A DNA stretch of 64,000 bases from an uncultured Prevotellaceae bacterium (GTDB lineage Bacteria; Bacteroidota; Bacteroidia; Bacteroidales; Bacteroidaceae): contig CAMVKN010000003.1 of assembly GCA_947168045.1 (NCBI GenBank), positions 29,071 to 93,070 on the forward strand, read 5' to 3'. Positions 29,138 to 54,958 of this stretch are shown in pieces (the first letter of the stretch is position 1; each line of letters starts with the position of its first letter). Position numbers and translations under genes: made by a program. Below the pieces are notes generated by a model. That model was not told the DNA's origin and did no database searches. It worked only from the letters and a program-made list of their open reading frames with translations.

Positions 29138-29749
29138 ATGACTGGAGCAGAAGCAAAGAAAATTTTGATGGCCGACGGACAAAATTTGTCGGCCCTTGCC
29201 GAAAAAATCGGCCTAACCCCACAGGCATTCGGCAGCCGTCTGAACGCACGCGAATTTAAGCGTAGTTATCAGATAGAAATTAACCAAGTTCTCGGTAGGG
29301 AACTTTTTGACGTCGGATTTGAGACAGACAACAAACAGCCCATCCTCGACATCAGGGTATGCGCTGGCAATGGCATTGGCCTCGAAGGTGAAGAGAACAA
29401 GGTGCTGGAGTACGTCACCATCCCAGCCCTCACAGGGTGCGTTGGCCTCACGGTCTACGGAGAAAGTATGTACCCACTCTATAAACCAGGCGACACTATC
29501 TTTGTTAGGCTTGTCACCGACAAACAGGATATTGACTACGGGCGCACCTACCTCGTCATTACGAGATCTGACCGCTTACTGAAAATGCTCTATGAATCAA
29601 AGAAGGGAAATGACCACCTTCGGCTCTGCTCATACAACGTGGAACAGAAGCCAGACGGTGAAAGGCTCTACCCGGATCGAGACATCCCTATCGATAACGT
29701 GCTCTTCATCTACAAAGTAGTCGGCAGCTTACAACGTGACCAAATTTGA
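29138..29749 (+). CDS. CI/LexA-type repressor with S24 peptidase domain
   Basis: N-terminal HTH (LSALAEKIGLTPQAFGSRL). C-terminal S24 core VYGESMYPLYKPGDTIFV with a downstream Lys. Confidence 0.8.
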   Translation: MTGAEAKKILMADGQNLSALAEKIGLTPQAFGSRLNAREFKRSYQIEINQVLGRELFDVGFETDNKQPILDIRVCAGNGIGLEGEENKVLEYVTIPALTGCVGLTVYGESMYPLYKPGDTIFVRLVTDKQDIDYGRTYLVITRSDRLLKMLYESKKGNDHLRLCSYNVEQKPDGERLYPDRDIPIDNVLFIYKVVGSLQRDQI

Positions 29750-30158: not shown

Positions 30159-30163
30159 TGCGT

Positions 30164-30318
30164 TTCAAGTCCAAAAAATGGCCCTGAAAGTGCCTTCAAG
30201 TCCAAAAAACGGACTTGAAAATTATCTTCAAGACCAAAATTTGCACCTGAAGATTTTCTTCAAGTCCAAAAATTGACCCTGAATAATTTTCAAGTCCAAA
30301 AATTGCACCTGAAACGAT
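30164..30318 (+). repeat. Five tandem ~31-bp units, each an imperfect palindrome TTCAAGTCC-N7-GGACTTGAA
   Basis: Unit starts are at 30164, 30195, 30227, 30259 and 30289. Unit 2 has perfect 9-bp arms. Confidence 0.9.
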
Positions 30319-30543: not shown

Positions 30544-31053
30544 ATGCAGAAAGAAATATACTTTGCTGGCGGTTGCTTCTGGGGCACAGAGCACTACTTC
30601 AAGCAGATAGAAGGCGTGACGATGACGGAAGTTGGGTTTGCCAACGGACACACTGAGAACCCGACCTACAAAGAGGTATATACCGACACGACGGGCTATG
30701 CAGAAACGGTGCTGGTGAGGTACCGGCCTGAAGTGGTCAGCCTTGAGTTCCTGCTACACATGTTTTTCATGGCCATCGACCCGACAAGTCTCAACAAGCA
30801 AGGCCACGATGAAGGCACACGCTATCGCACCGGCGTCTACTACACCGCACCCGAGGACCTGCCCATCATTGAAAAGGTCTTTGCCGAGGAGCAGGAGAAA
30901 TACGCCACGCCACTGGCTGTAGAAAAGCTCCCCCTGAAGAATTTCTACACAGCAGAGGAATACCATCAGGACTATCTTGACAAGAACCCAGACGGCTACT
31001 GCCATCTGCCCCAGTCTCTGTTCGCCTTTGCAAAGCAAGCCAGGGAACACTGA
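30544..31053 (+). CDS. msrA: Peptide-methionine (S)-S-oxide reductase
   Basis: GGCFWGTEHYF active-site motif, plus conserved GHTENPTYKEV and YHQDYL. Confidence 0.9.
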   Translation: MQKEIYFAGGCFWGTEHYFKQIEGVTMTEVGFANGHTENPTYKEVYTDTTGYAETVLVRYRPEVVSLEFLLHMFFMAIDPTSLNKQGHDEGTRYRTGVYYTAPEDLPIIEKVFAEEQEKYATPLAVEKLPLKNFYTAEEYHQDYLDKNPDGYCHLPQSLFAFAKQAREH

Positions 31054-31127: not shown

Positions 31128-32213
31128 ATGGCTACTAAGAATATTTTTGCCGGAATTGGGATTAAGACCACGTTTGTGAAAATCCTATACAATGAGTTGA
31201 TGAAGCGGGAGTTTGTGACCCTTGCTGATATCATGTGTATCAAGCGTAACCTTCCGAAAGGGTTCTATGACAACAATCCTAAAATGACACTGTCGAGAGA
31301 GGCATACTACGGCGACCTGAAGAAGGCTTCCTCCGACATGGTTAAAGCATTGGAACAAGCCATTCCTGGATGTATTGAGAATAATGGCAAGACAGGCAAG
31401 GGCAAGGCATTCAAATATATTGGTGAAAACGATGATCCGCTGGCGGCAGAACGTCATGCCATTGAACAAAAACGGTTAGAAGACTATGTCGCTTTCTGTA
31501 AGGCGTCAGCAGGTATCTTGCCGTCCAGTTGGTTCTCGTCCTATTTTGAGAACACCCAGCTACTGCTTGACACCAATCGTGAATCTGAAAGTGGAGCCAG
31601 CCATATCCGTTCCAGTCTGGAACAGAATCTCACTAATATTGACCTTTTGCCTGTATTCAACAAGGCTATTACGGACAGACAAGTTTTGTCATTCTCTTAT
31701 CAACCATTTGGACAGGAATTGTTTAATCTGACGTTCCATCCTCAGTTCCTAAAAGAATATAATGGCCGTTGGTTCGTCTTTGGCGAAGCAAATCGCGAGC
31801 CTTATCAAGCCTACAATGTGCCGCTGGACAGAATCGTTGGTGAGGTCAGTCCTATTGAGGGCATCGAATACATCCCTGCTGCAAAAGGCTTCTATCAACA
31901 CTATTTCCAGAACATTATCGGTGTCACCCATGAGAAAGGCGCCAAAGTAGAACAGGTGATTATTCGAACCAAGTCGGAATACCAGCATGGACTGCTAATG
32001 ACTAAGCCACTGCATCATTCCCAAAAGGAGATGTTGCCTTATAGCGAGCATGATGGGCAGTGGTACGGTGAGGTGATACTGGCTATTGAGCCTAACCGTG
32101 AACTACGGGGAAAGATATTGATGTATGGAGAGAATCTTGAGGTGATTGAGCCACAGTCATTGAGAGAGCAGATAAAAGAGGTCCTTACGAAGCAGATGGA
32201 CCAATACGGGTAA
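31128..32213 (+). CDS. WYL-domain transcriptional regulator
   Basis: Central FSYQPFG...FHPQFLKEYNGRWFVFG WYL core. C-terminal WCX-like end LEVIEPQSLREQI. Confidence 0.7.
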   Translation: MATKNIFAGIGIKTTFVKILYNELMKREFVTLADIMCIKRNLPKGFYDNNPKMTLSREAYYGDLKKASSDMVKALEQAIPGCIENNGKTGKGKAFKYIGENDDPLAAERHAIEQKRLEDYVAFCKASAGILPSSWFSSYFENTQLLLDTNRESESGASHIRSSLEQNLTNIDLLPVFNKAITDRQVLSFSYQPFGQELFNLTFHPQFLKEYNGRWFVFGEANREPYQAYNVPLDRIVGEVSPIEGIEYIPAAKGFYQHYFQNIIGVTHEKGAKVEQVIIRTKSEYQHGLLMTKPLHHSQKEMLPYSEHDGQWYGEVILAIEPNRELRGKILMYGENLEVIEPQSLREQIKEVLTKQMDQYG

Positions 32214-32232
32214 TAATGACCATAGACACATG

Positions 32233-32259
32233 AATGGTTCCAAACAGATTGGAACCATT
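32233..32259. promoter_or_regulatory. Perfect 11-bp inverted repeat (operator or terminator candidate)
   Basis: AATGGTTCCAA-acaga-TTGGAACCATT. It lies 20 nt after the WYL stop and 16 nt upstream of the -33 box. Confidence 0.5.
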
Positions 32260-32274
32260 TATGGAGCAGAAATG

Positions 32275-32306
32275 TTTGGGGCAATCATAAATCGGTTGTA
32301 TCTTTG
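32275..32306 (+). promoter_or_regulatory. Bacteroidota-type promoter for TPR/helicase operon
   Basis: TTTG (32275-32278), 20-nt spacer, TATCTTTG (32299-32306). It sits 42 nt upstream of the ATG. Confidence 0.55.
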
Positions 32307-32347
32307 CACAGAAATAAAACATAGCACTTGTTACTATATCAACGCCA

Positions 32348-33772
32348 ATGGATATCAACTCGAAGGAACACATTCATGCACTCTCTCCAGACATAGCAAA
32401 GGCATACAAACTGGGGAAAGAGCAGAAATACGATGAAGCGTATCAAGTCCTTGTGCCACATTTTGAAGCCAAGGAGATTCCTACATATTTCGAGGAGCCC
32501 TGCGGATGGGCTATCTATCGCTATTTGAAGAAAAACGAGAATAGGTTATCTTCAATAGAAGTCAGGAAAGCACTGGCCTTCTATCTGGCTTTTGCGTCTT
32601 GCAAGCCCAGTACTCTGCACTCATGTATAATGATTCAAGCTGCAAACTTGGAGAAAAAGCATGAGGATGACTTTCGGTTCATCGAATTCTGCAGGATGTG
32701 GAAATTAGAAAGCCTACAGGAAGAAGACTTTCTTACGGATAAGATAACCACTGACAGTGGCAAGTCGATTGAATTTCAGTCTTTGGCTGAAAATGTCGCC
32801 ACCCGTCTTTATAAAGAACTCAAGAAACGTCATACAGAAGAATTCGTCAATGAACTCTTCCCATTCTTCGAGACCATTAAGAAGAAATGCCCTAACAACA
32901 GATTCATTGGCATGTATATTGCCCAGCTGTATTACTGGCAAGGCAATGCAGACAGGGCTATTACTGAATACAAGAAGCTTCTCCGCACGACACCAGAGTG
33001 GTTTATCTGGAAGCATCTTGGTGACATCTGCGAGGATAAAGGAATCCGGATTTCATTGTATTGCAAAGCAATGACCTTGATGGGGAAGGAGGAATACATT
33101 GGTGAGCTACGATTAAACTTGGCAAAACTTCTGTTAGACTCCAACAAGGAACAGGCTGCTTACGAGATTGAGCAGTACAAGAAGACATACAGAGACAATG
33201 GCTGGAAGATAGGCGGTGATGTCTATTTGCTACAGAACAAGTTGTTAGGTATCACCCCTTCTGCTCAGGCAAAACTGTTCTATCAGAATAATATTGAGAA
33301 GGCAGAAGAATTTGCCTATAACGATATTCCTGTTGAGGAGTTAACTTATAGTGGTATTGTAACCAACCGTGTGGGGAAAGAAAAGGCAAGCCTTATAAAC
33401 AAACAAAAGAACATCTTTGTTCGTACAGCACTCACTCCATTACTGAGAACGGCAGCTATTGGTGATATTTTCCAGGTAAGAGTGTATGAGCATCAAAATC
33501 GGAAAATTGCTTTAACCATACACCCTACTGGGAGAAGGAACATTCTGCATACTGACAAAAACCCACAAAACAAACTTGAAGATTCAGAGACATGTACCAT
33601 AAGCGGCAAGATAACCTTCCCCTCTCAGGGAGAGTTCTGCTTTATTGACCATCAGTATTTTGTACCAGAAAAGCTAACCAAGGCCAACCATTTAAAGGAA
33701 GGTGACACTGTCAAGGCTAAAGCCAAGAAAATGTCAGACGGCAGGTGGCGGGTTGTATCAATCATAAAATGA
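32348..33772 (+). CDS. TPR-like helical repeat protein with C-terminal CSD/S1-like OB fold
   Basis: Helical-repeat middle region (AQLYYWQGNADRAITEYKKLL etc.). C-terminal GKITFPSQGEFCFIDHQYFVP...EGDTVKAKAKKMSDGRWRVVSI resembles cold-shock/S1 OB folds. Confidence 0.5.
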   Translation: MDINSKEHIHALSPDIAKAYKLGKEQKYDEAYQVLVPHFEAKEIPTYFEEPCGWAIYRYLKKNENRLSSIEVRKALAFYLAFASCKPSTLHSCIMIQAANLEKKHEDDFRFIEFCRMWKLESLQEEDFLTDKITTDSGKSIEFQSLAENVATRLYKELKKRHTEEFVNELFPFFETIKKKCPNNRFIGMYIAQLYYWQGNADRAITEYKKLLRTTPEWFIWKHLGDICEDKGIRISLYCKAMTLMGKEEYIGELRLNLAKLLLDSNKEQAAYEIEQYKKTYRDNGWKIGGDVYLLQNKLLGITPSAQAKLFYQNNIEKAEEFAYNDIPVEELTYSGIVTNRVGKEKASLINKQKNIFVRTALTPLLRTAAIGDIFQVRVYEHQNRKIALTIHPTGRRNILHTDKNPQNKLEDSETCTISGKITFPSQGEFCFIDHQYFVPEKLTKANHLKEGDTVKAKAKKMSDGRWRVVSIIK

Positions 33773-35817
33773 CAGGTAGTATGACATTGACAAAACAGCA
33801 GCAGCAGGTATTTGACGCTATTAAAGAGTTTATGGATAGCGATGCATCAGTCTTTATCCTTAAAGGGTATGCCGGTACGGGTAAGACGACGATGGTTAAG
33901 GTCATTGCCGACTATCTGTCTCAGGGCCGTGATGTTCATTTGATGGCACCAACGGGCAGGGCTGCACGAGTCCTTGCCGAAAAAACAGGTCGGCCAGCCG
34001 TAACTATTCACAAGGCTATTTACGAAAAGGCGTGTGTAGTTTCCAAGAATGTCAAGGATGTAGCTGAGTCTGAATTCAAGTTCGTATTCCCTGTACGCAA
34101 AAATGAACATGGTGGTAAGGTCGTTGCAATAGTAGACGAGGCATCCATGGTTTGCTCTCGAAAAATAGAGCATGAGTTATTCGTGTTTGGAACAGATAAT
34201 CTGATGGAAGACCTGTTGGATTTTATTCGCCCAGATTTTGGAGGAAAGGTCATCTTCGTTGGTGATCCTGCTCAGCTCCCTCCTGTCGGTGAACCTGAAT
34301 CCCAAGCATTGAGAAAGGAGTTTTTTATTGAGCGTGGCTTAAAGGTCGTCGAAGCAGAACTGACTGAGGTTCTTCGTCAAAAGGATGACAGTATCATCCT
34401 GAAGAACGCCATGATGATTCGCGACTTATTGAAACAAGAAAAGCGTAATTGTCTTGTGTTTGAAGAGAAGGAGAATGATGTGGAGACCGTTTCTCCTGAT
34501 AAATTCCTTGACAAGTATCTTGACTATAGGAGGAAGTCAGGCAGGCATGACAGCGTCGTGATATGCTATTCTAACAGAGCTGCGAGCATATATAATAGCG
34601 ATATACGGAAATCTCTATATGGCGATAATGTGTCGCTCAGAGTGAACGATATACTGCTCATTACTCAGAACAACTACAGATTAGGGCGCATGAATGGCGA
34701 GTTCGTTCCTGTTCTTGAAGTCGGAGCAAGAACACAACAGTCTGCTCCTGTATATGCTCAAGTTGGCAGCGAGCGGAAACGTATCACCGTAACCATCAAC
34801 TTTGTTCAGGTGGTTGTGCCCGACGGGGAGGGTAATCCCATGCGTTGTATGCTTATAGAAGACCTTCTGACAAGTGACAAAGCATCCATCTCTATTGATG
34901 AGAATCGTGCTCTATACATTAATTTCTGCATGCGCAATCCTCACTTGAAGCAAGGAACTCAGGCCTTTGTCGATGCGCTGATGAATGACGTATATTATAA
35001 TGCTGTCAGGGCGAAATACGGTTATGCGGTAACAGGACACAAGTGCCAAGGTGGAGAATGGGGCAAAGTGTTTGTTGATTATACTGACAGAACAGGTCTG
35101 AATGATGACTCTCTGAGGTGGGCATATACTGCAACGACTCGTGCGCAGAAGACCCTCTACGTCACCAACCTGCCGCATGTGACCCCGTTTGACAAGTTCC
35201 GTATCGAACCTATCCAAAAATGCAAGAACATGTCGTCGGAGTGTCGTATAATCGGTGATGTAGAGCCAACTCCTTTTCATGACGAGAATAGTGAAAACTA
35301 TCTAAGAGCAAAGTATCACTGCATCATGTACAACATGGATGGCACCCCATACTCCATCCTGTCTGTCACAAGCAAGCCATACATGGAGATTTATCAGATT
35401 CAGACACCCATCGGGACTGACAGGTTCGATATACATTACAAGGCTGGAGGTATATTCTTGCCTGCTGTACCTATATCGAGGAACGAGCATACACAGTTGG
35501 TGTTGATGCTTCTCAACAACGAAAGAATGTTACCGTACGTTTTCAATTACACGCCATCGGACGATATCCTTGAGCGGCTTTATAACATGATACGTTCCGC
35601 ATGCGACGGTTTGTCAGTCCAGATTACCAATGTGGTAGAACATCCTGAAGATTACAGTGTGGTCTATTATATGAGGACAAGTGATACCTACTCATATATC
35701 AAGGTATATATTGACAAAAAAGGGTTTGTCACTTACGCAAAACCCATGTCCATGCTTGGTCCAGACGATGATGAATTGACAGCTGTCATCAAGGAAATCA
35801 GCGACCATTTCATATAA
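33769..35817 (+). CDS. SF1B RecD/Pif1-like helicase with duplicated C-terminal alpha/beta domain
   Basis: Motifs LKGYAGTGKTTMV, AIVDEASM, VIFVGDPAQLPPVG, AVTGHKCQGGEW and YTATTRAQKTLYV. ATGA overlap with the upstream stop. About 200 aa of uncharacterised tail looks like two ~80-aa repeats. Confidence 0.8.
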   Translation: MTGSMTLTKQQQQVFDAIKEFMDSDASVFILKGYAGTGKTTMVKVIADYLSQGRDVHLMAPTGRAARVLAEKTGRPAVTIHKAIYEKACVVSKNVKDVAESEFKFVFPVRKNEHGGKVVAIVDEASMVCSRKIEHELFVFGTDNLMEDLLDFIRPDFGGKVIFVGDPAQLPPVGEPESQALRKEFFIERGLKVVEAELTEVLRQKDDSIILKNAMMIRDLLKQEKRNCLVFEEKENDVETVSPDKFLDKYLDYRRKSGRHDSVVICYSNRAASIYNSDIRKSLYGDNVSLRVNDILLITQNNYRLGRMNGEFVPVLEVGARTQQSAPVYAQVGSERKRITVTINFVQVVVPDGEGNPMRCMLIEDLLTSDKASISIDENRALYINFCMRNPHLKQGTQAFVDALMNDVYYNAVRAKYGYAVTGHKCQGGEWGKVFVDYTDRTGLNDDSLRWAYTATTRAQKTLYVTNLPHVTPFDKFRIEPIQKCKNMSSECRIIGDVEPTPFHDENSENYLRAKYHCIMYNMDGTPYSILSVTSKPYMEIYQIQTPIGTDRFDIHYKAGGIFLPAVPISRNEHTQLVLMLLNNERMLPYVFNYTPSDDILERLYNMIRSACDGLSVQITNVVEHPEDYSVVYYMRTSDTYSYIKVYIDKKGFVTYAKPMSMLGPDDDELTAVIKEISDHFI

Positions 35818-35830: not shown

Positions 35831-35862
35831 TTTGTTGGAGTCAAAGATAATTTGTATTTTTG
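35831..35862 (+). promoter_or_regulatory. Bacteroidota-type promoter for cas operon
   Basis: TTTG (35831-35834), 20-nt spacer, TATTTTTG (35855-35862). Confidence 0.45.
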
Positions 35863-35910: not shown

Positions 35911-36585
35911 ATGAAATATATACGAACACTTACAGTATTAACCGATGCGGAAATTCACCAGAATGAAATACCACTTTTCCGCGGAGCAGTATTGGCAAGC
36001 TTAGGAGAAAAGGCCAACCTGCTCTATCATAATCATACATCTGATACCACTTTCCGCTATGCCTATCCGTTAGTGCAGTATAAGCGCATTCATAGCAAGG
36101 CCGCTATTATATGTGTTGAAAAAGCAGTGGATTTGATAGGGCAGTATTTGACAACATTTAATGCCATCTTGCGTCTTGGCGAGCGTGAAACCGAATGTAG
36201 GATAGAGACTATTAACTTAAATGAAACGCTCGTAGGCATCAGCGATACGCTCTTCAACTATCGTATTTGCCGATGGCTACCACTGAATTCGAATAACTAT
36301 CAAACCTTCAAGTGTACAGAAGGCCTGGTAGAGCGTATCTCTATGTGCGAGAACATCCTTAAAGCTAACTTATTATCAATGTTGAAGGGGCTGGACATCT
36401 TTTTGGATGATAAGCTGATAATCAAGATGACCCGTCTCAGCGATTCTTACATTATATATAATAAAGGTATAGGTATGACAGCATTTGATGCCGAGTTTAT
36501 GTGCAATCTCACTATCCCCAACCACATCGGAGTTGGCAAAAACGCCAGTATTGGGTGTGGTGTCGTTTCAAGAATAACGAACTAA
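35911..36585 (+). CDS. cas6: Cas6-family crRNA endoribonuclease
   Basis: 224 aa. FRGAVLASLG...YAYPLVQYKR N-terminal motifs. C-terminal RAMP glycine-rich loop HIGVGKNASIGCGVV. First gene of the cas operon. Confidence 0.6.
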   Translation: MKYIRTLTVLTDAEIHQNEIPLFRGAVLASLGEKANLLYHNHTSDTTFRYAYPLVQYKRIHSKAAIICVEKAVDLIGQYLTTFNAILRLGERETECRIETINLNETLVGISDTLFNYRICRWLPLNSNNYQTFKCTEGLVERISMCENILKANLLSMLKGLDIFLDDKLIIKMTRLSDSYIIYNKGIGMTAFDAEFMCNLTIPNHIGVGKNASIGCGVVSRITN

Positions 36586-36598
36586 AACTGCAATAATC

Positions 36599-38044
36599 AT
36601 GAACAAGTATCTCTATGGAGCTGCCGTGCAAGGCATTCAAGACTTCATTTTCAAGACCAACGAACTGACGCACATAGTCGGTGCCAGTGAATTGGTAGAG
36701 CAGATTTGCACTTCTGCTTTCGATGAGTTTGCTAAGGACGGTGAATCTATTGTACGCGCAGCGGGAAACATCAAGTTTGTTTTTAATCGTGAGGAAGACT
36801 GTAGAAAGGCTGTTCGCGAGTTCCCCCAAAAAGTAATGAGCATGGCTCCAGGCATTATCATCAGCCAGGCAGTTGTCTTGGCAGATGCAGACTTCGGTAA
36901 GGCTGTTGATAAATTGGAGGTATTACTGAAAGTGCAGCGTAACACACCCCCGCGCAATGTTACTCTTGGATTGTTGGGAGTAAAAAGAGCCAACAGTACA
37001 GGATTACCGGTTGTCAAGATTGACGAAAGCATTTATAAGGACGAACCCACGGTGCAAAAAGAATGTTACCAAAATAGGACGAAGCTGTGCAAGAAGAGTT
37101 TTGGAGACATTGTAATCTCAAAAGGTGCTTTCGCCTATGATATTAAGGACATCACTGGCAAGAATGACTGGATAGCCGTTATCCATGCTGACGGCAATGG
37201 AGTAGGAAAAATCGTTCAGGCCGTCGGTAAGAACAAAGATATATTCCAGAATTTCTCTTTACAGTTGGACATGGCGACTTCAGAGGCAGCACAGATGGCA
37301 TTTAATGCAGTTAAGGATCGCTTCAGCGACAAGAAAGTGATTCCCATTCGTCCTGTTGTTCTAAGTGGCGATGATATGACGGTAATCATTCGTGGTGACT
37401 TGGCTCTTGACTACACCAATGCCTTTATCAGGGCTTTTGAAGAAAAAACACGAGAGCATTTAGGCAATATCTTGAGGGGGCAAGAGGTGTTTGCCTCGGG
37501 TGAAGATTGCCTGACGGCTTGTGCCGGTATAGCTTTCATCAAGTCGTCCTATCCATTCTATTACGGTTATCAGTTGGCTGAAGAGCTATGCAGCCATGCG
37601 AAGAAAGACACAAAAGCCATCTATGGTGCCACCTCAAATCACTTGCCTCCTTCCTGTCTGCTGTTTCACAAGGTTCAAGACAGCTTTATCATCAACTACG
37701 ATGATATAGTCAAAAGAGAACTCACGGCTCAAGGTGGGTTGTCCTTCAAAGCAGGTCCTTACTACACCTCTCCACAGGCTGGCAAAAAGACTGTCGATGA
37801 CCTCTTTGATGCCAGCAAGTTGCTTGTCAGTGAAAATGGAGACGGCATCAAGTCGGGCATCAGAAATTGGATTTCGTTGCGGCTTGAAGATGAGAATAAA
37901 GCTGCTCAGCGAAGGGAGCGGATGCTCCAAGTCTTCACAGATGCTACCGTTGTCAAGCAACTGACCTGTGAGGAGGACAAACGCTGTATGGCTTACGACG
38001 TCTTGGCATATAACACCATCATGAACCAACAAACAAATGAATAA
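36599..38044 (+). CDS. cas10: Cas10-like cyclase/palm subunit, short form without HD domain
   Basis: N-terminus AVQGIQDFIFKTNELTHIVGASEL is Cas10/Cmr2-like. Palm motifs IAVIHADGNGVG, VVLSGDDMTVI (SGDD at 37364-37375) and ACAGIAFIKSSYPF. Only 481 aa, with no H-D dyad N-terminal domain. Confidence 0.75.
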   Translation: MNKYLYGAAVQGIQDFIFKTNELTHIVGASELVEQICTSAFDEFAKDGESIVRAAGNIKFVFNREEDCRKAVREFPQKVMSMAPGIIISQAVVLADADFGKAVDKLEVLLKVQRNTPPRNVTLGLLGVKRANSTGLPVVKIDESIYKDEPTVQKECYQNRTKLCKKSFGDIVISKGAFAYDIKDITGKNDWIAVIHADGNGVGKIVQAVGKNKDIFQNFSLQLDMATSEAAQMAFNAVKDRFSDKKVIPIRPVVLSGDDMTVIIRGDLALDYTNAFIRAFEEKTREHLGNILRGQEVFASGEDCLTACAGIAFIKSSYPFYYGYQLAEELCSHAKKDTKAIYGATSNHLPPSCLLFHKVQDSFIINYDDIVKRELTAQGGLSFKAGPYYTSPQAGKKTVDDLFDASKLLVSENGDGIKSGIRNWISLRLEDENKAAQRRERMLQVFTDATVVKQLTCEEDKRCMAYDVLAYNTIMNQQTNE

Positions 38045-38047
38045 GGT

Positions 38048-38590
38048 ATGAAAACAATCAAATACGAAATCGTGTTCTTCTCCCATTGGCATTGTGGCTC
38101 TGGTTTAGCTGCGGGGGCAGATGTTGATGCGCTGGTCATTAAAGACGAAGATGGGCTACCCTATGTTCCTGGGCGCACCTTGAAAGGATTACTCCGTGAT
38201 GCCGCAACTGACCTTGAAAGTGATCAGGAGACTATCAATCAACTATTTGGTGTTTCAGGTGACGAAGAGAAGCACCATGCAAGTAAATCATTCTTTGGCA
38301 ATGCCGTCCTGCCTGCTGCTGAAAGAGCTTATATCACTGAACAGAAGCTACAATCCCATCTGTTTCAATCCTTTGCTTCCACAAAGATTGATGAAAACGG
38401 CATTGCGAAAGACCATTCTCTAAGAAAGATAGAAACTGTTGTTCCTTGTAAGTTGGAAGGTGAAATCGTCAATGTGCCAGACCATGCTGAAAGGATTTTG
38501 GAAGACGCTATGCACTTCATCAAGCGAATAGGAACAGGCAGAAATCGCGGTTTTGGCCGTTGTAAGGTAACAATTAGAAAGGAGGCTTGA
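38048..38590 (+). CDS. cas7: Cas7 (Csm3/Cmr4-like RAMP)
   Basis: HCGSGLAAGADVDALVIKDEDGLPYVPGRTLKGLLRDA, plus the C-terminal G-rich loop RIGTGRNRGFGRC. Confidence 0.7.
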   Translation: MKTIKYEIVFFSHWHCGSGLAAGADVDALVIKDEDGLPYVPGRTLKGLLRDAATDLESDQETINQLFGVSGDEEKHHASKSFFGNAVLPAAERAYITEQKLQSHLFQSFASTKIDENGIAKDHSLRKIETVVPCKLEGEIVNVPDHAERILEDAMHFIKRIGTGRNRGFGRCKVTIRKEA

Positions 38591-38591
38591 T

Positions 38592-40025
38592 ATGACAAAG
38601 ACAATGAAATTCAAATGCACCCTTGAGTCTGACATCGTTTTAAGCCAGACGTCAAGCAGCGTGGGCAATCTGCAATCTCTCGACTTTATCCCTGGCAACA
38701 ATTTCCTGGGCATAGCAGCCAGTCGATTATATCAAGATGGTTCCTTTGAATCGTTAGAGCTTTTCCATTCTGGTAAAGTGCGTTTCGGCGATGCTCACCC
38801 TTCTGTTGGCGGCATCAGAGGTCTGAAGGTGCCCGCCTCCATGTATTACCCCAAACTGGGCTCAGCCAGCGAAGAGTGCTATATTCATCATCTGACCGAT
38901 TATAATAGTACAGACATCAAAGCCAAGCAGCTTAAGCAGTGCCGTTATGGTTTTTACTCCTTTGATGAGAAAAAAGGCTCACTTGTTGATGTTCAGAAGA
39001 ATCTCACCATCAAGACGGCGTATGACGAAGAACACCGTCGCAGCAAGGATGGGCTACTTTTCTGCTACGAATCATTGTGCAAAGGACTGGTACTGTATTT
39101 TGAAGTTGAGTCTGAACTTGACGAGAAGCAGAATAAACGAATTGCCGATGCTCTTTGTGGTAAGCGACACATCGGTCACTCACGCTCCGCAGAATTTGGA
39201 GCAGTCGTCATTGAAGAGTCTCCTTACGAGGAAACGTTGTCATCAAAGTCTGACACAACAATGGATGAAGCAACCGTCTATGCTGATGGCCGCCTGATAT
39301 TCCTTGACGAGAACGGCGAGCCAACTTTCCAACCAACGGCAAAAGATCTTGGCTTTGATGGTGGTACCATTGACTGGTCTAAGAGCCAGATACGCACTTT
39401 TCAGTATGCGCCTTGGAATGGAAGGCGTCACAGTTATGAAGCTGAACGGTGTGGCATTGAGAAGGGCAGCGTGTTTGTAATAAAGCTGAACGGTGCTTCC
39501 TGTCCGGAAAAGAGTCAGTATATCGGAGCCTATAGGAATGAGGGCTTTGGCAAGGTTATCTATAATCCTGTTTTCCTCAAAGCTGACGAGCATGGAAGGG
39601 CTTTTTGCGTATTGGAGAAAAAGTCAACAGAAAAACACGTGCAGGTAAACACTCCGAGACCCGATTCACCATTGATTGATTTCCTGTCACAAACGAAGCA
39701 ATCAGCTGAATGCCAGCAGACAGTATATCAAATAGTGCAGGACGAGGCGGCACAGCTTGAACCCTATTTTAAAAAAGGACGTTTCGCCTCTCAGTGGGGA
39801 TCAATTCGCAGTCTGGCCATGATAGCTTCCAACAGTAAACAGCTTATCGAACTTATCGACTCTTACCTAGACCATGGCGTGGCCAAGGAAAAATGGGAAG
39901 AGCGAAGCCGAAAGAAGCGTCTTGATGACTTTATGAATGAAAACCAGGATAACGACCTGATAAACATCATGGTCAACTTGGCATCAGTGATGGCAAAGAA
40001 ATGTAAAGCAAGAGAGGAGGATTAA
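38592..40025 (+). CDS. csx10: Csx10-like Cas5 RAMP with Cas11-sized helical C-terminal tail
   Basis: LDFIPGNNFLGIAASRLY at the N-terminus, and the G-rich loop GAYRNEGFGKVIYNP at residues ~313-325. Residues ~358-477 are predicted helical. There is no stand-alone cas11 in the locus. Confidence 0.6.
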   Translation: MTKTMKFKCTLESDIVLSQTSSSVGNLQSLDFIPGNNFLGIAASRLYQDGSFESLELFHSGKVRFGDAHPSVGGIRGLKVPASMYYPKLGSASEECYIHHLTDYNSTDIKAKQLKQCRYGFYSFDEKKGSLVDVQKNLTIKTAYDEEHRRSKDGLLFCYESLCKGLVLYFEVESELDEKQNKRIADALCGKRHIGHSRSAEFGAVVIEESPYEETLSSKSDTTMDEATVYADGRLIFLDENGEPTFQPTAKDLGFDGGTIDWSKSQIRTFQYAPWNGRRHSYEAERCGIEKGSVFVIKLNGASCPEKSQYIGAYRNEGFGKVIYNPVFLKADEHGRAFCVLEKKSTEKHVQVNTPRPDSPLIDFLSQTKQSAECQQTVYQIVQDEAAQLEPYFKKGRFASQWGSIRSLAMIASNSKQLIELIDSYLDHGVAKEKWEERSRKKRLDDFMNENQDNDLINIMVNLASVMAKKCKAREED

Positions 40026-41407
40026 TGATGAAAAATCAATATCGTTTTCTGGCCCGAGTCATTATCGAGGCCAAGTCGCCACTCAATATCGGCAGTGGCA
40101 ATAGAGGCATCAAAAGCGATTCTCTCGTTTTGAGAGATGTCAACGGATTGCCGTTTATCCCTGGAACCACGCTGGCAGGCTTGTTACGGCATGCCCTTGG
40201 AAAAGACAATGACCGACTGATGGGGAGTCAGCAGATGGGCTCGCCGTTAATCATTACCGAAGCCAAGATGCTCAACTGTGATGGAACTGTACTCGACGGC
40301 ATACTGCCGCAAGCCCAGCTTAACAGTCCTTTCCTTGCTCATTTTCGTCATCTGCCCATTCGTCAGCACGCTAAGATTGGCCATCGGGGCTCAACAGTAA
40401 ATGGCGGCAAGTTCGATGAGGAAATAGTGTTAAAAGGTGCACGCTTCTGCTTTGAGATGGAGATGCTTTCTGCTACTGACGATGACACAGATTTCAAGTG
40501 TCTACTCAACATCTTGGCTTCACCAACCTTCCGCATAGGCTCTGGCAGCCGTTCTGGCTTTGGAGAAGTAGAAGTTGTGGACGAACTATGCCGATACAAG
40601 AAGATTGACTTTAGTGTGGCTGCCCAAAGAAACTGGTATCTTCAGAAATCTTCCTCACTGAGTGAAGAGTGGAAAGATGCTGAGACTATTGAACTGGACA
40701 AAAAGAATGAAGAGGGATGGACAACATATGACTTACAGCTCAGTCCTGTTGACTTCATGCTGTTTGGTTCCGGCTTGGGCAACGACAAAGCAGACATGAC
40801 CTTTGTCAGGGAAACTTTCATTGATTGGTCTGGTGATTTTGCTCAAGTTAGAGACCACGAAAGCGTTGTGCTCATTCCAGCTTCTTCGGTCAAAGGTGCA
40901 CTCTCTCACCGCTTAGCATTCCATTACAACAAACTGACCAAAAAGTTTGCCGACACCTTAGCCGACGGGGAAAGCATAACAGACTATACAGGTAAGAACA
41001 ATGCAGCAGTAAAAGCAATATTCGGTTCAGAAGGTGACAAAGGGCAGGACGGAAAAGTTCAGAACAAACAGCGTGGTCGTGTGCTGATGTCTGACATTAT
41101 CGAAGAAGCGTCATTTTCAACCAAGGTCTTAAATCACGTGTCTATCGACCGTTTTACAGGCGGTGCAATTGACGGTGCGCTCTTCGATGAAGAAACACTT
41201 TATGCCAAAGGCTACTCTTTTGGCATGAAACTCATGGTAGACAATGAAGCCTTCATAGGTAACGACCTGGTTAAGACAGCCTTTGAGGATGCATTGAAAG
41301 ACTTATGCTCAGGGATGCTGCCGCTTGGTGGTGGCGTCAATCGTGGCAATGGATGTTTTGAAGGTACAATTAAACGAAATGGAGAACTGATTTATGGAAA
41401 CAATTAA
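40025..41407 (+). CDS. cas7: Double Cas7 fusion (Cas7-2x)
   Basis: Two RAMP cores. Core 1: NIGSGNRGIKSDSLVLRDVNGLPFIPGTTLAGLLRHA + RIGSGSRSGFGEV. Core 2: LIPASSVKGALSHRL + SIDRFTGGAIDGALFDEE + LPLGGGVNRGNGCF. Confidence 0.75.
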   Translation: MMKNQYRFLARVIIEAKSPLNIGSGNRGIKSDSLVLRDVNGLPFIPGTTLAGLLRHALGKDNDRLMGSQQMGSPLIITEAKMLNCDGTVLDGILPQAQLNSPFLAHFRHLPIRQHAKIGHRGSTVNGGKFDEEIVLKGARFCFEMEMLSATDDDTDFKCLLNILASPTFRIGSGSRSGFGEVEVVDELCRYKKIDFSVAAQRNWYLQKSSSLSEEWKDAETIELDKKNEEGWTTYDLQLSPVDFMLFGSGLGNDKADMTFVRETFIDWSGDFAQVRDHESVVLIPASSVKGALSHRLAFHYNKLTKKFADTLADGESITDYTGKNNAAVKAIFGSEGDKGQDGKVQNKQRGRVLMSDIIEEASFSTKVLNHVSIDRFTGGAIDGALFDEETLYAKGYSFGMKLMVDNEAFIGNDLVKTAFEDALKDLCSGMLPLGGGVNRGNGCFEGTIKRNGELIYGNN

Positions 41408-41789
41408 TATCAAGAGCTGTGAGGGCTATCTTTGGTGGAGCGACCAGCAGAATCCCCAAGTTTATCATAATGAGGCTTTAGACATTTGTCTGGACGAAAC
41501 AAAAAATCCTTTTGTTGTGGAAGGACAACTATACGACGGAGAATGTGGCCAATCTTACAGCATCAAATATGTCGATGGCCAATACCTTATTAAGGTATAT
41601 AAAGTAGCGGATAGGGATTTCTCGAATCCAGATAACGAGCAAAAAGCCTTTTTATCAAACAGAATGGCTGGCCGTTGGCTGAAATTTTTGCGCTATTGGG
41701 AAGAGAAAAAAGATGAGAACTGTATGGGTATGCCCGTGTTGACATTTACCAAGAACGTATTTGTAGGATTTAAAGAAAAGGAGGATTAA
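41394..41789 (+). CDS. Csx19-like small subunit candidate
   Basis: 131 aa. Sits between cas7-2x and cas7-insertion, the slot csx19 occupies in type III-D variant loci. No motif-level confirmation is possible by eye. Confidence 0.4.
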   Translation: METINIKSCEGYLWWSDQQNPQVYHNEALDICLDETKNPFVVEGQLYDGECGQSYSIKYVDGQYLIKVYKVADRDFSNPDNEQKAFLSNRMAGRWLKFLRYWEEKKDENCMGMPVLTFTKNVFVGFKEKED

Positions 41790-41791
41790 AT

Positions 41792-44149
41792 ATGATTAGA
41801 GCACCATTTAACTTTGTGCCGCTGAATGATAGGCCATATTTGCCTGGATGGGCAGACCAGATATCACATGATATGCCTTTTAATGATGGTGTTTGTGGGA
41901 AAATACGGTTGCGCTTAATTGCGGAGACCCCCATGTTCATTGGTGATAAAGTTCCTGATGACAACACCGTGCCATGCGAGTTTTGCCATGTTCAGGACAC
42001 ATCAGGCAATAAGCGTTATTTCATCCCAGGTTCTTCAATTAAAGGAATGTTGCGTAGCGTGATGGAAATTCTCTCTTATGGCAAGATGACCCAAGTGCAG
42101 AATCAGAGTTTTGGTATCCGTGACTTGAGTAATAGTACTGATGGCGAATTCTATCGCGATAAAGTGAAGGTCGATAAAGTACATTGTGGATGGCTTAGAA
42201 TAGATGAAGAAGGCTATCAGCTGAATGATTGTGGTCTGCCCTGGCGAATCTCCGCAGAAGAGATAGACCGGAAGTATCATATTGGCTTGATGAGTTTTAT
42301 CAAAGAGAAAAGTCATTTCAAATCTGATGACAATAAAACTGCTCAAAAAAAATACTCGCTGTTCCATGCCTATGGTGAAGACAGTCTGCTCACTGACTAT
42401 TTTGAACCAACGAGTATTCCTGGCATTAATGCTGGCGGTAGAAAGTTTGTTCGTTTTGGTAGTGGCGGAATGGTAGGAACAATTGTGTTTACAGGACAGC
42501 CTGGTCCTCGACAGAAGAAATACAATGATAGAAAGAAAAAAGAAGTTTCTTCTGGAAAACTATTTGAGTTCGTATTCCCATCTCAGCTTGAGAAGACTAA
42601 TATACCTGTTCCGGAACGTGTATTCAAAGAGTTCGATTCAATACATCAGAACTCTGCTGACTATATCAATTTCCGTAAGAAGCAACTTCGAAAAGGTGAA
42701 GAGATTCCTGTCTTCTTCATATATAACGAAAACGGAGAAATTGATACTATGGGAATCTCATATATGTATAAATTCCCTGCATACAATAAGGTCTACAATG
42801 CTATTCCTTTGTCGCTGCTTGACAAGAGCATCCAAGACTTGAGTGAGTGTATATTTGGCTTCACTGATAAAGGTAACTCTTTGAAGGGACGTGTTCAGTT
42901 TTCTTCAGCCGTTCTTTGTGGAGAACCGTCATTCCATGATGAGGTCAAACTGGCATTGGCATCACCACATCCGTCTTACTATCCTCTTTATCTTGGCAAG
43001 GGTCAGACGTGGAATACTAACAATATCAGAATTGCAGGACGAAAGAGGTATCCTGTCAGAGATAAAGCTGATATATTACAAAACGAAGGGACTGACAAGA
43101 TGAGTCGCATCATACGCCCTTTGAATGCCGGAGTTACCTTCGAAGGTGATGTTTGTTTTTTCAATTTGCGTCCCATTGAATTAGGGGCACTCATCTCCGC
43201 TATTGATTTCTGTCAACATGAAGAGTGTTCACATAATATAGGCCAAGGAAAACCTTTGGGATACGGAAAAGTAAAACTGACTGTGGTGGATAGTCTGGTG
43301 AAAGGTGTTCAGAATGATGACGTGTCTTTTTCTATGGAACAGGCAAGAAAATCTTTCATCTGTGAGATGGAAAAACAATTTCCTGGATGGTCAACATCGC
43401 CACAAATGAAAGAACTCTTTGCCATGGCCAAAGGTATTCCTTCCGATAAAACTTCCTTATTCAAATTCATGAAGATGTCTACCACAGGTGAAGATAACGA
43501 ATTCAAACAAGGTTTAAACGCTTACTCACAAGGAGAACAACTCGGAACTTTTACACAGATTCTTTTAGGAAATGTTCCTCGAACCAAACAACTATCAAAT
43601 GTTTCAGTAGATGCAAAGCGCGAAGATGTGGAAGCACAATTAGCCAAAGAGCTAGAGAAAAAGGAACAGGCATTGGCCAGGGCACAGGAAGAACAAAAGC
43701 AGAATGTATATTTTGGCCTCCTCTCAGATGCCCGTCAGGCTTTGATAGACAGAATATGGGATGTATCTCTATCAAAGATAGAGAGGGCCATCAATCTTTA
43801 TCCAGAGAGCCGAGATGCTATTGATCTTAAAGCACAGATTCTCAAAGAAAAGGATTTGACAGATTATCAAAAACAGCAGAAAGCAGAGGCATTACAGAAA
43901 TTCAGCCAGCCTCTATCCGAGGTCATCAAGGGCAAGACTTCTGCAGGCAACTTGGTAGGGACAACTGTGAAATGGCTGAAAGGTGAAGCTCATTATTTTG
44001 GACAAGCAGAGCAAGCAGCATTTATTGCAGAAGCCCAGAATCTGAATGCAGAAGAGAGAAAGAAACTGAAAAGCAAACTTTCTGACCTATCGAAAGTTGC
44101 TGACAAAGAATGTGTTAAACAGCTAAAAAATGAATTAGGAATAGAATAA
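41792..44149 (+). CDS. cas7: Large RAMP (Cas7 with insertion, TIGR03986-like) plus ~285-aa C-terminal extension
   Basis: N-terminus APFNFVPL, YFIPGSSIKGMLRSV, and the G-rich loop IGQGKPLGYGKVKL at residues ~483-496. Residues ~500-785 are Lys/Glu/Gln-rich and helical. Confidence 0.7.
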   Translation: MIRAPFNFVPLNDRPYLPGWADQISHDMPFNDGVCGKIRLRLIAETPMFIGDKVPDDNTVPCEFCHVQDTSGNKRYFIPGSSIKGMLRSVMEILSYGKMTQVQNQSFGIRDLSNSTDGEFYRDKVKVDKVHCGWLRIDEEGYQLNDCGLPWRISAEEIDRKYHIGLMSFIKEKSHFKSDDNKTAQKKYSLFHAYGEDSLLTDYFEPTSIPGINAGGRKFVRFGSGGMVGTIVFTGQPGPRQKKYNDRKKKEVSSGKLFEFVFPSQLEKTNIPVPERVFKEFDSIHQNSADYINFRKKQLRKGEEIPVFFIYNENGEIDTMGISYMYKFPAYNKVYNAIPLSLLDKSIQDLSECIFGFTDKGNSLKGRVQFSSAVLCGEPSFHDEVKLALASPHPSYYPLYLGKGQTWNTNNIRIAGRKRYPVRDKADILQNEGTDKMSRIIRPLNAGVTFEGDVCFFNLRPIELGALISAIDFCQHEECSHNIGQGKPLGYGKVKLTVVDSLVKGVQNDDVSFSMEQARKSFICEMEKQFPGWSTSPQMKELFAMAKGIPSDKTSLFKFMKMSTTGEDNEFKQGLNAYSQGEQLGTFTQILLGNVPRTKQLSNVSVDAKREDVEAQLAKELEKKEQALARAQEEQKQNVYFGLLSDARQALIDRIWDVSLSKIERAINLYPESRDAIDLKAQILKEKDLTDYQKQQKAEALQKFSQPLSEVIKGKTSAGNLVGTTVKWLKGEAHYFGQAEQAAFIAEAQNLNAEERKKLKSKLSDLSKVADKECVKQLKNELGIE

Positions 44150-44151
44150 TT

Positions 44152-46030: not shown

Positions 46031-46130
46031 CAGCCCCTAAGAAAAGGCCTTTTTTTAAGGCAAAAGCATTGCATTTGTTTGGCACATTGGAGAATAAATA
46101 ATTAATAATGAGGGATATATAGTATTTACC

Positions 46131-49100: not shown

Positions 49101-50013
49101 GAGCATATTCCAATAGAATAAGGATTAAGACAGCATTGGTCCGCCGTTGTTGCCTTTGAGCGCATCTCATAGAGCATATTCCAATAGAATAAGGATTAAG
49201 ACGTTCTTTGCCTTGCGAACACTGTGTACTTGTGCCATGCTCATAGAGCATATTCCAATAGAATAAGGATTAAGACTTAAATCGAATGTGAGCGTGTAGG
49301 GTTGATTCGACCCACTCATAGAGCATATTCCAATAGAATAAGGATTAAGACGCAGGCGGTGTGACAGGCGGCTGGTTACCTGCAGGCTCATAGAGCATAT
49401 TCCAATAGAATAAGGATTAAGACACAGTCCCAAAGATACGTGTAGTCGTTTCTGCTTGTTTCTCATAGAGCATATTCCAATAGAATAAGGATTAAGACAG
49501 CCGAAATTGCCTTCCGACCCGTACTTGCAACTGCCACTCATAGAGCATATTCCAATAGAATAAGGATTAAGACAAGAGTTCGTTGCTTTTACTGAGTAAA
49601 GCATCCCTCATAGAGCATATCCCAATAGAATAAGGATTAAGACAGCTGTGGGAACTCTCTTAAACGGCGAGCTGCCACAAACTCATAGAGCATATTCCAA
49701 TAGAATAAGGATTAAGACCGCCCAGAGAAGTCGTATACTACTTTTGGTTTCATGAGCTCACAGAGCATATTCCAATAGAATAAGGATTAAGACTTTGCGT
49801 GTTCACACTGTCCAATGACAATACCGACCGTCTCACAGAGCATATTCCAAATAGAATAAGGATTAAGACTCAAACCAAGTTTATAAAAGTACTCAGTAGC
49901 TTCCTCACAGAGCATATTCCAATAGAATAAGGATTAAGACGAGGAAGGTCACTACGTTTATGTTCAGATTTAATATCTCACAGAGCATATTCCAATAGAA
50001 TAAGGATTAAGAC
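46131..50013 (+). CRISPR. CRISPR array, 53 repeats / 52 spacers
   Basis: 37-nt repeat CTCATAGAGCATATTCCAATAGAATAAGGATTAAGAC with a central TATTC-CAATA-GAATA hairpin and an 8-nt 3' tag ATTAAGAC. Spacers are 33-41 nt. The leader-distal end has degenerate repeats: T->C at 49607-49643, CTCACAGAGC from 49757, and a 1-nt insertion in the repeat at 49832. Confidence 0.97.
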
Positions 50014-50097: not shown

Positions 50098-50140
50098 AAA
50101 AACGGTTCTAAATAGAACGGAACCGTTCGCAAGATTATTT
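50098..50140 (+). terminator. Hairpin after array (terminator or operator candidate)
   Basis: AACGGTTC (50101-50108) pairs with GAACCGTT (50120-50127), followed by ATTATTTTCC. Confidence 0.3.
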
Positions 50141-50252
50141 TCCTTGCAAGGTTGCGAAAATCGTCTTAACTTTGCAGCGTCAATCATCGATACCACCTCG
50201 TGATTGATGCTGCAAATGCTTAGTGGTGGTAACCTGAAACTAAACAACAACT

Positions 50253-50699: not shown

Positions 50700-50760
50700 A
50701 ATGCTTCCGCACAACAAAACATTCTTCACACATGTCTAACCAACAAAAAACAACAAGACA

Positions 50761-51267: not shown

Positions 51268-51268
51268 G

Positions 51269-54402: not shown

Positions 54403-54405
54403 TTT

Positions 54406-54798: not shown

Positions 54799-54809
54799 AT
54801 TACTGTGTT

Positions 54810-54907
54810 TTTTGTTTTTAGGGTGTCAGGGTGACAGAACAGCTGTAAACACTGGGGCTGCACCCTGTTTTTGAGGGTGACAAGGGTGACAGGAGGGTGA
54901 CAGGTTG
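54810..54907. repeat. Left arm of ~97-nt inverted repeat rich in GGGTGACA/TGTCACCC
   Basis: Its reverse complement matches 57253-57350 with 4 mismatches, counted by hand. Confidence 0.9.
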
Positions 54908-54958
54908 CCGGCTGCGGTTTGGCTCACATTGGAGAAGCAACGGCATGTCAGCCGGACA

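Follow-up and report, generated by a model that had tools for sequence, protein, structure and literature searches.

The 64,000-nt window that we analyzed, from an uncultured Prevotellaceae bacterium (assembly GCA_947168045.1, contig CAMVKN010000003.1, positions 29,071–93,070 of the forward strand), carries three plus-strand genes between msrA (30544–31053) and the CRISPR gene cas6b (35912–36585), and this trio, a putative regulator followed by a tightly packed gene pair, is our subject. An initial annotation had described three co-directional genes filling the msrA–cas6 gap, and the list of open reading frames (ORFs) in the window agrees. The first gene (31128–32213, +) encodes a 361-aa WYL/WCX-domain protein, the putative ligand-sensing transcription factor of the cassette (Pfam, PADLOC). 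The second (32348–33772, +) encodes a 474-aa candidate sensor/adaptor in which DUF7017 TPR-like repeats precede a first OB domain (residues ~329–378) and a second domain of S1/CSD type (415–472; Pfam, PADLOC, AlphaFold2). The third (33781–35817, +) encodes a 678-aa candidate effector, or 682 aa when read from 33769, with a superfamily 1B (SF1B) helicase core at residues 1–~470 and two TBP-TOTE domains at ~495–678 (Pfam, PADLOC). Translational coupling of the last two genes through an ATGA at 33769–33772 had been proposed. The overlap of the TPR gene stop with a helicase start is present in the sequence, but initiation there is uncertain, as the helicase ORF has candidate starts at 33745, 33769 and 33781 (end 35817) and most public gene calls for homologous helicases, usually 678 aa, favor the second in-frame ATG, 33781. 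A start at 33769 gives a 4-nt overlap, and the ATG at 33781 lies 9 nt past the TPR gene stop, with 8 bases between. The helicase start codon is thus ambiguous, and the two genes are tightly packed with either choice.

By its domain content and profile matches, the core pair is classified as a TOTE system of the helicase-effector type, which PADLOC lists as phage-defence candidate PDC-M16. The name stands for TPR, OB, TBP and Effector and is credited in PMC12458937 to Aravind, Iyer and Burroughs 2022. The 474-aa protein matches PDC-M16B (9e-58), the helicase matches PDC-M16A (3e-200) over profile positions 3–684 of 691, and together they display TPR repeats, a C-terminal OB domain, a TBP-like domain, a fused effector and gene adjacency, the full set of TOTE features. 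Pairing of a TPR-CSD protein with the helicase is conserved in all full-length loci. The Pfam and PADLOC searches proposed with the initial annotation therefore yield a definite family, TOTE/PDC-M16, and its description of the genes as unclassified and part of no named system does not hold, since dedicated Pfam families exist and PADLOC lists PDC-M16. Its suggestion that a TPR plus S1/CSD core recalls NTP-dependent conflict systems was right about the conflict system, which is TOTE, and wrong about the source, which is the 2022 paper; the 2020 eLife paper on NTP-dependent conflict systems does not contain the term. It named Hachiman, Gabija, Nhi and Mokosh as systems with other partners, and the partner proteins of those systems are absent here. 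All four resemble the window pair in having a P-loop helicase or ATPase component, but the PADLOC scores of the window helicase against Nhi (1e-5), GajB (8e-4) and MkoA (8e-4) are marginal, of the kind expected from a shared P-loop, compared with 3e-200 for PDC-M16A. What is known, then, is a computational classification of the family; what we add is the WYL operator and a recurrent linkage to type III CRISPR–Cas.

Three lines of evidence, DUF7017 (Pfam 3e-19, 69.7 bits against a cut-off of 27.5), S1CSD-TOTE-2 and an AlphaFold2 model, agree on helical repeats ending in a cold-shock/S1-like OB fold, the architecture first assigned to the middle gene. In the model (mean predicted local distance difference test score, pLDDT, 73.5), helical repeats span residues 6–319 and are followed by β domains at 329–378 and 415–472. 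The best PDB structural matches of this model are TPR superhelices, and TPR proteins alone were returned because the repeats dominate the fold search; the OB region has no PDB sequence match. Pfam does not detect S1CSD-TOTE-1 in the 474-aa protein, although the domain is present in a Chryseobacterium homologue. The last domain contains a cold-shock RNP1-like motif, which reads FGFVD in the family consensus from an alignment of distant members, FCFID in the window protein and KGFGFVE in the Escherichia coli homologue. The TPR-CSD family comprises 773 representatives at 50% clustering; the TPR-CSD protein has no match in 50,697 phage records.

The helicase matches AAA_30 (8e-30), PIF1 and UvrD_C_2 in Pfam, and also RecD2. 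Its Walker A motif GYAGTGKTT (K35), Walker B motif DEAS (D119, E120), GDPxQLPP (GDPAQLPP here), GHKCQGGEW and YTATTRA are invariant in 21 homologues, so that Walker A, Walker B and the SF1 motifs III, V and VI are intact, in line with the SF1B motif set originally read by eye. The protein aligns to PDB entry 9kwf_B throughout its core, with further PDB sequence matches to RecD2 (3e1s) and Dda (3upu). Orthology to RecD2, RecD or TraA is not indicated, as the NCBIfam scores fall well short of the cut-offs (123 of 500 bits for RecD2, 62 of 310 for RecD and 53 of 590 for TraA_Ti). A duplicated C-terminal domain of ~80 aa and of unknown function had been noted. The duplication stands and the function label does not, because the region corresponds to two copies of Pfam TBP-TOTE (1e-18, 67.2 bits against a cut-off of 27, in two stretches); a profile comparison of the two C-terminal halves gives a weak, in-register match (E 0.055). 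Profile searches detect no nuclease domain in the helicase, and none of the three proteins shows CARF, SAVED or a comparable domain in the Pfam and PADLOC searches.

For the first gene, the WYL (2e-5, 24.9 bits, cut-off 21.8) and WCX (4e-6, 27.6 bits, cut-off 23.9) domains found by Pfam, together with a match to the PADLOC CRISPR-associated WYL profile (1e-19), support its first reading as a WYL regulator. The protein has a long N-terminal region of ~170 aa. Relatives with 68–99% identity occupy the same place in every locus of the window's own lineage (A1, below) that reaches far enough upstream. Between this gene and the pair, an operator-like inverted repeat can be read directly at 32233–32259, AATGGTTCCAA-N5-TTGGAACCATT, an 11-bp palindrome with the core GGTTC-N11-GAACC. 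The Bacteroides promoter consensus is TTTG / TAnnTTTG, and a putative promoter of this type for the pair follows the repeat on the plus strand at 32275–32306, with a −33 TTTG (32275–32278), 20 nt and a −7 box, TATCTTTG (32299–32306), also read directly. Across nine related loci, conservation covers the half-sites (A-A/C-C/T-GGTTC ... GAACC-G/A-TT) but not the variable spacer between them, the pattern expected of a dimeric protein-binding site and not of a hairpin. Both promoter boxes are conserved in the same nine loci at a fixed distance from the repeat, making this layout more than a chance match, in agreement with the earlier proposal that the pair has its own TTTG/TATCTTTG promoter preceded by a perfect 11-bp palindrome. 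We considered and set aside a plain terminator of the WYL gene: the palindrome lacks a T-run, conservation extends beyond complementarity to the actual sequence of its half-sites, and a promoter accompanies it in every case.

The repeat is not confined to the pair. GGTTC-N11-GAACC occurs 21 times in the 1.48 Mb of fetched loci (given L numbers here), each time in a locus with the window's WYL type, and it precedes several different transcription units. In the window, a second operator-like repeat, AAACGGTTCTAAATAGAACGGAACCGTTCG (50099–50129, with an exact copy of the core at 50104–50124), lies just past the CRISPR array and is followed by a −7 box of the TAnnTTTG form, TAACTTTG. This copy sits upstream of three genes (50099–53329), two of which encode proteins of 148 and 168 aa with no Pfam matches and the third a 686-aa Pif1-family helicase with a C-terminal TPR region. 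In L037 and L039, too, the type III operon and array are followed by a second copy, and in L105 a copy stands directly upstream of the same 148-aa/168-aa/Pif1 trio, which closes the variable region there as well. The WYL gene on one side and this trio on the other thus seem to frame a variable set of defence cargo. The cas6b/type III-D operon has a separate promoter-like site on the plus strand (TTTG, 20 nt, TATTTTTG; 35831–35862, read directly), where our repeat search of the window found no operator repeat. From this distribution, the WYL protein is predicted to control the TOTE pair and the post-array unit and not the cas operon. A regulatory role would fit the conserved operator-like repeat, and the exclusive co-occurrence of the repeat with this WYL type is suggestive, if indirect. 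The position of the repeat, upstream of the −33 box, would be compatible with activation and with repression alike.

Other observations bear on the WYL gene and the junction that follows it. Insertions of 680–920 bp separate the WYL and TPR-CSD genes in L026 (2400–3076), L027 (4094–5012) and L033 (2582–3434); those of L026 and L027 hold G+C-rich perfect palindromes of 12–13 bp, and that of L033 includes a stretch like the leader of the window's 148-aa gene (window ~50176–50210). In L003–L005 (3600–5565), the gene for a WYL protein with 67% identity to that of the window forms a pair with a phosphoribosyltransferase-like gene and adjoins a Fic gene, a few kilobases upstream of a lineage B TOTE triad (below), which includes a separate WYL gene of another kind. 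Occurrence of the window's WYL type is thus not confined to TOTE.

Downstream of the trio, the window contains a type III-D operon (35912–45783, +; PADLOC, Pfam) in the order cas6b, cas10d, cas7, cas5/csx10, cas7, csx19, cas7 and CARF-HEPN-Csx20. Along its whole length, the 481-aa Cas10 matches the HD-less Cas10d profile (8e-153), confirming that the neighboring Cas10 lacks an HD domain. The further idea that a helicase arm makes up for the missing HD nuclease is not supported by these results; the helicase has no nuclease domain of its own. A CRISPR array follows (46130–50013, +), with 53 repeats of 37 nt (CTCATAGAGCATATTCCAATAGAATAAGGATTAAGAC) and 52 spacers by tandem repeat finder and repeat parsing. 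The spacers match nothing else in the window, including an adjacent prophage, giving no sign of self-targeting. Despite the 52-spacer array, there is no cas1 or cas2 in the window. Known RNA families are absent from 29–51 kb. The near-identical relative L025 diverges after csx19, where its Cas7 is only 38% identical, and contains a cas1 gene (L025 21538–22032), so that the 3′ half of the type III-D locus must have been exchanged between close relatives.

Neighborhood look-ups and scans, tblastn matrices and trees divide the related loci into four lineages; one genome scan contributed 10 Bacteroidales loci. In the window's lineage, A1 (the window, L001/L002/L025, L020 and L026–L040; helicase at least 88% and WYL 68–99% identical to the window's), the order is WYL, TPR-CSD and helicase, with cas6b ~90 bp on. 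This holds for all 16 metagenomic loci whose helicase shares at least 88% identity with that of the window, and also for L020; every A1 locus with downstream DNA has cas6b (17 of 17, at least 17 once duplicate retrievals are left out). Where the contig runs past cas6b, a type III-A operon follows in 11 loci and a type III-D operon in the window and four others, so that the triad–cas6b junction is kept while the effector module switches. Both kinds of A1 locus have a short Cas10 without room for an HD domain, and their CRISPR repeat families are related. The lineage is shallow, with helicase cores at least 91% identical among themselves.

Type III linkage recurs in lineage C (L022, L023 and L111–L114; helicase 33–36%, TPR-CSD 40–45%), whose TOTE genes are embedded in type III loci. 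In L111–L114 the order is type III-A/III-D genes, a CARF effector, a helicase of 487–494 aa, CARF-HEPN-Csx20, cas1, PrimPol, cas2 and TPR-CSD. The helicase between the two CARF effector genes is, in four of four loci, a PDC-M16A core without TBP domains (1e-117) and is 35% identical to the window's core; the TPR-CSD protein encoded after cas2 is PDC-M16B, and in L111 a CRISPR array directly follows its gene. L022 and L023 also have TPR-CSD after cas2, with no TBP-domain helicase seen. Clade C helicases are 62–85% identical among themselves. A type III location thus characterizes 17 of 17 A1 loci with downstream DNA and six of six clade C loci, but not A2, B or the plasmid homologues.

The remaining lineages contain full-length pairs with no cas gene within 10 kb, as do the E. 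coli and Chryseobacterium plasmids. In A2 (L041–L107; helicase 67–90%, TPR-CSD only 17–19%), which lacks cas genes, the gene order is reversed. The reversed pair of L106/L107 (9392–18415) interrupts a type 1 BREX operon, with pglX on one side and pglZ on the other; a 133-aa ORF and Sel1 and SprT-like genes follow it, and the operon is headed by a WYL/WCX (BrxR-like) gene. Locus L105 combines the window's WYL type and downstream trio with different cargo, namely a reversed TOTE pair, a TerB-like gene (the counterpart of the 133-aa ORF, called from a weak, sub-threshold match), a HATPase_c gene and a 411-aa gene. In lineage B (L003–L019, L021 and L024; helicase ~45% over its full length and 54% in the core, TPR-CSD 62–80%, WYL 31–35%), two unannotated genes, of ~260 and ~200 aa, and a reverse-transcriptase gene come after the WYL gene and the pair in every case; PLDc_2, or else HisKin-conflict and iREC, is also encoded in most of the loci. 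These two unannotated genes cannot be obligatory TOTE parts, being absent from the window and all A1 loci. On a Chryseobacterium balustinum plasmid (L109 833–5545), a reverse-transcriptase/HisKin-conflict/response-regulator block also flanks the TOTE pair. TOTE with such a block is thus a second partnership that recurs, and it may form a larger composite system.

Beyond Bacteroidota, full-length homologues occur on plasmids of E. coli, Salmonella, Rhodothermus and others, some of them conjugative. The E. coli pair consists of a 979-aa DUF4145–helicase–2×TBP protein and a 474-aa TPR-CSD protein (named only 'AAA family ATPase' and 'tetratricopeptide repeat protein' in RefSeq). Of 5,426 complete genomes, 54 (1%) contain it with an identity of at least 99%, 30 on chromosomes and 24 on plasmids. 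It lies on a stretch flanked by insertion sequences (ISs) in H15 plasmid A (IncY, NZ_CP010179, 64605–68965; L108 6212–10572) and, in the THO-010 chromosome (L110), on an IS-rich, integrase-bearing island near clpA, alongside the anti-phage gene hhe. Occurrence in such unrelated contexts (a BREX operon, reverse-transcriptase blocks, IS-flanked islands and plasmids) establishes the pair as a mobile, self-contained cassette. Its two genes do not share one history, as A-type helicases pair with TPR-CSD proteins just 17–19% identical to one another and, in trees, the window's TPR-CSD protein groups with lineage B (77–80%) and its helicase with A2. By these comparisons sensor and effector genes are evidently shuffled between lineages, as is typical of conflict systems. 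The neighborhood survey recommended with the initial annotation thus returns a divided answer, with the pair recurring near defence genes both with type III loci (A1 and C) and without them (A2, B and plasmids). Each half of the original alternative, an accessory of the type III system or an independent one, accordingly gains something, the former from A1 and clade C and the latter from the non-CRISPR loci.

Taking these results together, we lean toward the view that the trio is an autonomous WYL-controlled TOTE conflict cassette, probably cooperating with its type III neighbor. A dimer of the WYL protein would bind GGTTC-N11-GAACC, and a nucleic-acid-derived ligand, as in other WYL regulators, would switch the TPR-CSD/helicase unit; the post-array unit bearing the same repeat would be switched as well. 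The TPR-2×OB protein could then capture single-stranded nucleic acid of an invader and dock on or recruit the helicase, whose two TBP-like domains might hold duplex or an RNA–DNA hybrid. Translocating 5′ to 3′, a polarity taken from family membership, the SF1B motor would strip or unwind replication or transcription intermediates of the invader. In the Prevotella sublineage, this cassette would have become fixed at the head of type III loci with an HD-less Cas10. RNA–DNA hybrids as the relevant substrate are a speculation, one compatible with the RNase H effectors of TOTE systems elsewhere and with neighbors that make or use such hybrids (reverse transcriptases, PrimPol and type III complexes, which depend on transcription).

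Several points tell against this picture of an autonomous, regulated cassette. By sequence, the WYL protein matches no helix–turn–helix or other DNA-binding family in Pfam and nothing in the PDB. The assigned folds have their own limits, in that S1CSD-TOTE-2 barely passes in the 474-aa protein (2e-6, 28.2 bits against a cut-off of 27) and the TBP-like fold is predicted from the Pfam match, the structure prediction for the helicase having a pLDDT of 48. A strict two-OB sensor may not hold either, because the TPR-CSD protein is only ~395–415 aa long and lacks the second OB domain in 11 of the 16 A1 loci of the metagenome scan, plus L020 (the carriers being L020, 1185–2408, and loci among L027, L029–L032 and L034–L040). 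Public gene calls of 396–415 aa form separate clusters. Either the second OB domain can be spared where the cassette is linked to CRISPR, or the gene is in decay in those loci. The window's own full-length protein is closer to lineage B copies (77–80%) than to the short A1 copies (68–69%), which suggests gene replacement by recombination. Moreover, the invariable type III neighbor in A1 could mean that the cassette is not autonomous there. Finally, TOTE's proposed logic is taken second-hand from PMC12458937, and our literature search found no experimental test of TOTE/PDC-M16 against phage or plasmids.

The trio might instead be a dedicated accessory arm of type III CRISPR–Cas and not an independent system, an explanation we hold possible but doubtful. 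Such an arm would supply or process single-stranded or hybrid nucleic acid for acquisition by Cas1–PrimPol–Cas2, or act on target DNA or R-loops with the HD-less Cas10 complex. It would account for the constant spacing to cas6b and the III-A or III-D operon beyond it, for the persistence of the triad with cas6b as the effector module swaps subtype, always with a short Cas10 and no HD room, and for the placing of the helicase core between CARF genes and TPR-CSD after cas2 in four of four further loci of the deep clade C. In yeast two-hybrid assays reported by Zabrady et al. 2021 (PMC8211822), Cas1 is bound by a RecD-like helicase, possibly related to PDC-M16A, that a Bacteroidetes cas1–PrimPol–cas2 type III (CAPP_B) operon encodes. 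Against a dedicated arm stand the many full-length pairs without cas genes within 10 kb, which include the closest non-A1 helicase relatives (67–90%); the shallowness of A1, whose synteny could come from a single juxtaposition; the lack of cas1/cas2 in the window and of an operator repeat at the cas operon's own promoter; and the lack of a CARF or other cyclic-oligoadenylate-sensing domain in the three proteins. With similar reserve, we raise the broader suggestion that Bacteroidales type III systems whose Cas10 lacks HD have repeatedly taken on a TOTE helicase with a TPR-OB protein as an accessory arm, apparently at least twice, once as the whole WYL cassette before cas6b and once as split genes, with a TBP-less helicase, in the cas1–PrimPol–cas2 module. 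The helicase and the single-strand-binding OB protein would then produce or pass on substrates, either prespacers for PrimPol and Cas1–Cas2 or, at transcribed protospacers, unwound target DNA or R-loops, and so connect innate sensing of nucleic acid with adaptive immunity.

Adjacency might instead mean nothing, if the region from the WYL gene to the downstream 148-aa/168-aa/Pif1 trio is a defence-island hotspot in which unrelated cargo collects, the TOTE pair and type III locus being independent tenants and only TOTE being WYL-controlled. The different cargo held in L105 between the same WYL type and the same downstream trio fits this account, as do the several transcription units headed by the operator repeat and the G+C content of 0.38–0.47 at 28–50 kb between flanks of 0.52–0.59. 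It nevertheless leaves unexplained both the survival of the triad–cas6b junction through III-A/III-D exchange and clade C's independent placing of both family members among cas genes; that clade is deep (62–85%) and its TOTE genes are interleaved with cas genes, which is hard to dismiss as island crowding. We rate meaningless adjacency as improbable. Least credible of all, with hardly any prospect in our view, is a reading of the pair as a mobile element's helicase cassette that serves housekeeping, replication or conjugation. The helicase core does resemble RecD2, TraA and Pif1, homologues do occur on plasmids, some conjugative, and the window does have a primase-VapE and DnaB-like region at 53–57 kb. 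Yet the pair is sporadic, with chromosomal or plasmid copies in 1% of the complete genomes of E. coli; the E. coli copies are IS-flanked with no relaxase or oriT context; pairs sit inside a BREX operon and next to validated defence genes; the TPR-CSD protein is unmatched among the phage records; and the NCBIfam RecD2 and TraA scores are far below cut-off. On distribution and genomic context, we set this alternative aside.

Comparison with known systems sets the window's genes beside WYL-regulated defence loci as well as TOTE. Background examples of WYL regulators include BrxR of BREX and CapW of CBASS, and the activators DriD and PafBC. The window's cassette is similar to those loci in that a WYL/WCX gene heads the operon and an inverted repeat adjoins the promoter predicted to be controlled, and the BREX locus with a related TOTE pair inside it likewise begins with a BrxR-like WYL gene. 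Unlike BrxR, CapW, DriD and PafBC, the window's WYL protein has no sequence-detectable helix–turn–helix and has a long (~170 aa) N-terminal region. With TOTE the window's pair shares its two-gene core, and the pairs on E. coli and Chryseobacterium plasmids carry the domains found in the window. The window differs in having a WYL regulator with a conserved operator as a third, fixed gene and in belonging to a sublineage locked to type III CRISPR–Cas loci; the E. coli system, by contrast, lacks a WYL gene, and its helicase protein begins with an additional DUF4145 domain. TOTE systems elsewhere often use RNase H effectors, according to PMC12458937, whereas the window effector is an SF1B helicase. 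The same source has TPR-CSD fusions and TBP proteins as common to TALON and TOTE, but TALON's YprA-family helicase, NERD nuclease and largely Chloroflexota distribution have no counterpart in the window.

The type III CAPP_B operons of Zabrady et al. 2021 (PMC8211822) share with the window an SF1B RecD-like helicase in a Bacteroidetes type III locus, and clade C loci have exactly that operon layout. The window helicase differs in its two TBP domains and in its position upstream of cas6b, outside any adaptation module; cas1, PrimPol and cas2 are missing from the window; and a TPR-CSD partner is not mentioned in the passages of the paper that we consulted. The available portions of CRISPR accessory-gene surveys likewise contain no description of the TOTE pair that we could find.

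There are several implications. The repeated occurrence of TOTE genes beside or inside type III loci of rumen and gut Bacteroidales suggests a testable link. If functional, it would join a helicase/OB innate sensor to CRISPR interference or spacer acquisition and would give a role to the Cas1-binding RecD-like helicase of the Bacteroidetes type III operon. If not, the locus is still a clear example of a WYL-governed, cargo-swapping defence hotspot. More broadly, TOTE/PDC-M16 is a sizeable family, with the 773 TPR-CSD representatives and a range that extends from Prevotella to E. coli plasmids, and is so far a computational prediction. The version in the window is compact, with three genes, one of them for a putative regulator, and a defined operator, and the native E. 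coli homologue is a convenient experimental model.

The surroundings of the island add further observations. On the minus strand at 53398–57124, one gene encodes a DnaB_C-like helicase of 334 aa and another a 721-aa protein that joins a BT4734-like primase to a VapE-like domain, a combination typical of mobile elements of Bacteroidota; no integrase was found in the window. The CRISPR/TOTE island may be cargo of an integrated element or a neighbor to one. A prophage occupies 1–30200, mostly on the minus strand, with genes for a terminase large subunit, a Clp-type protease, SNF2 helicases, a DNA methylase, PcfJ, a Gp157-like protein and, at 29138–29749, an S24 LexA/CI-like repressor. In L001, from another metagenome, the msrA–WYL–TOTE–type III locus is 97–99% identical and peptidase S8 and CotH genes stand where the window has the prophage, which is therefore a recent arrival beside the CRISPR locus. 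A 32-bp unit, TTCAAGTCCAAAAAATGGACCTGAAAATTATC, is tandemly repeated ~4.8 times at 30163–30314, between msrA and the end of the prophage, and may be related to the attachment site.

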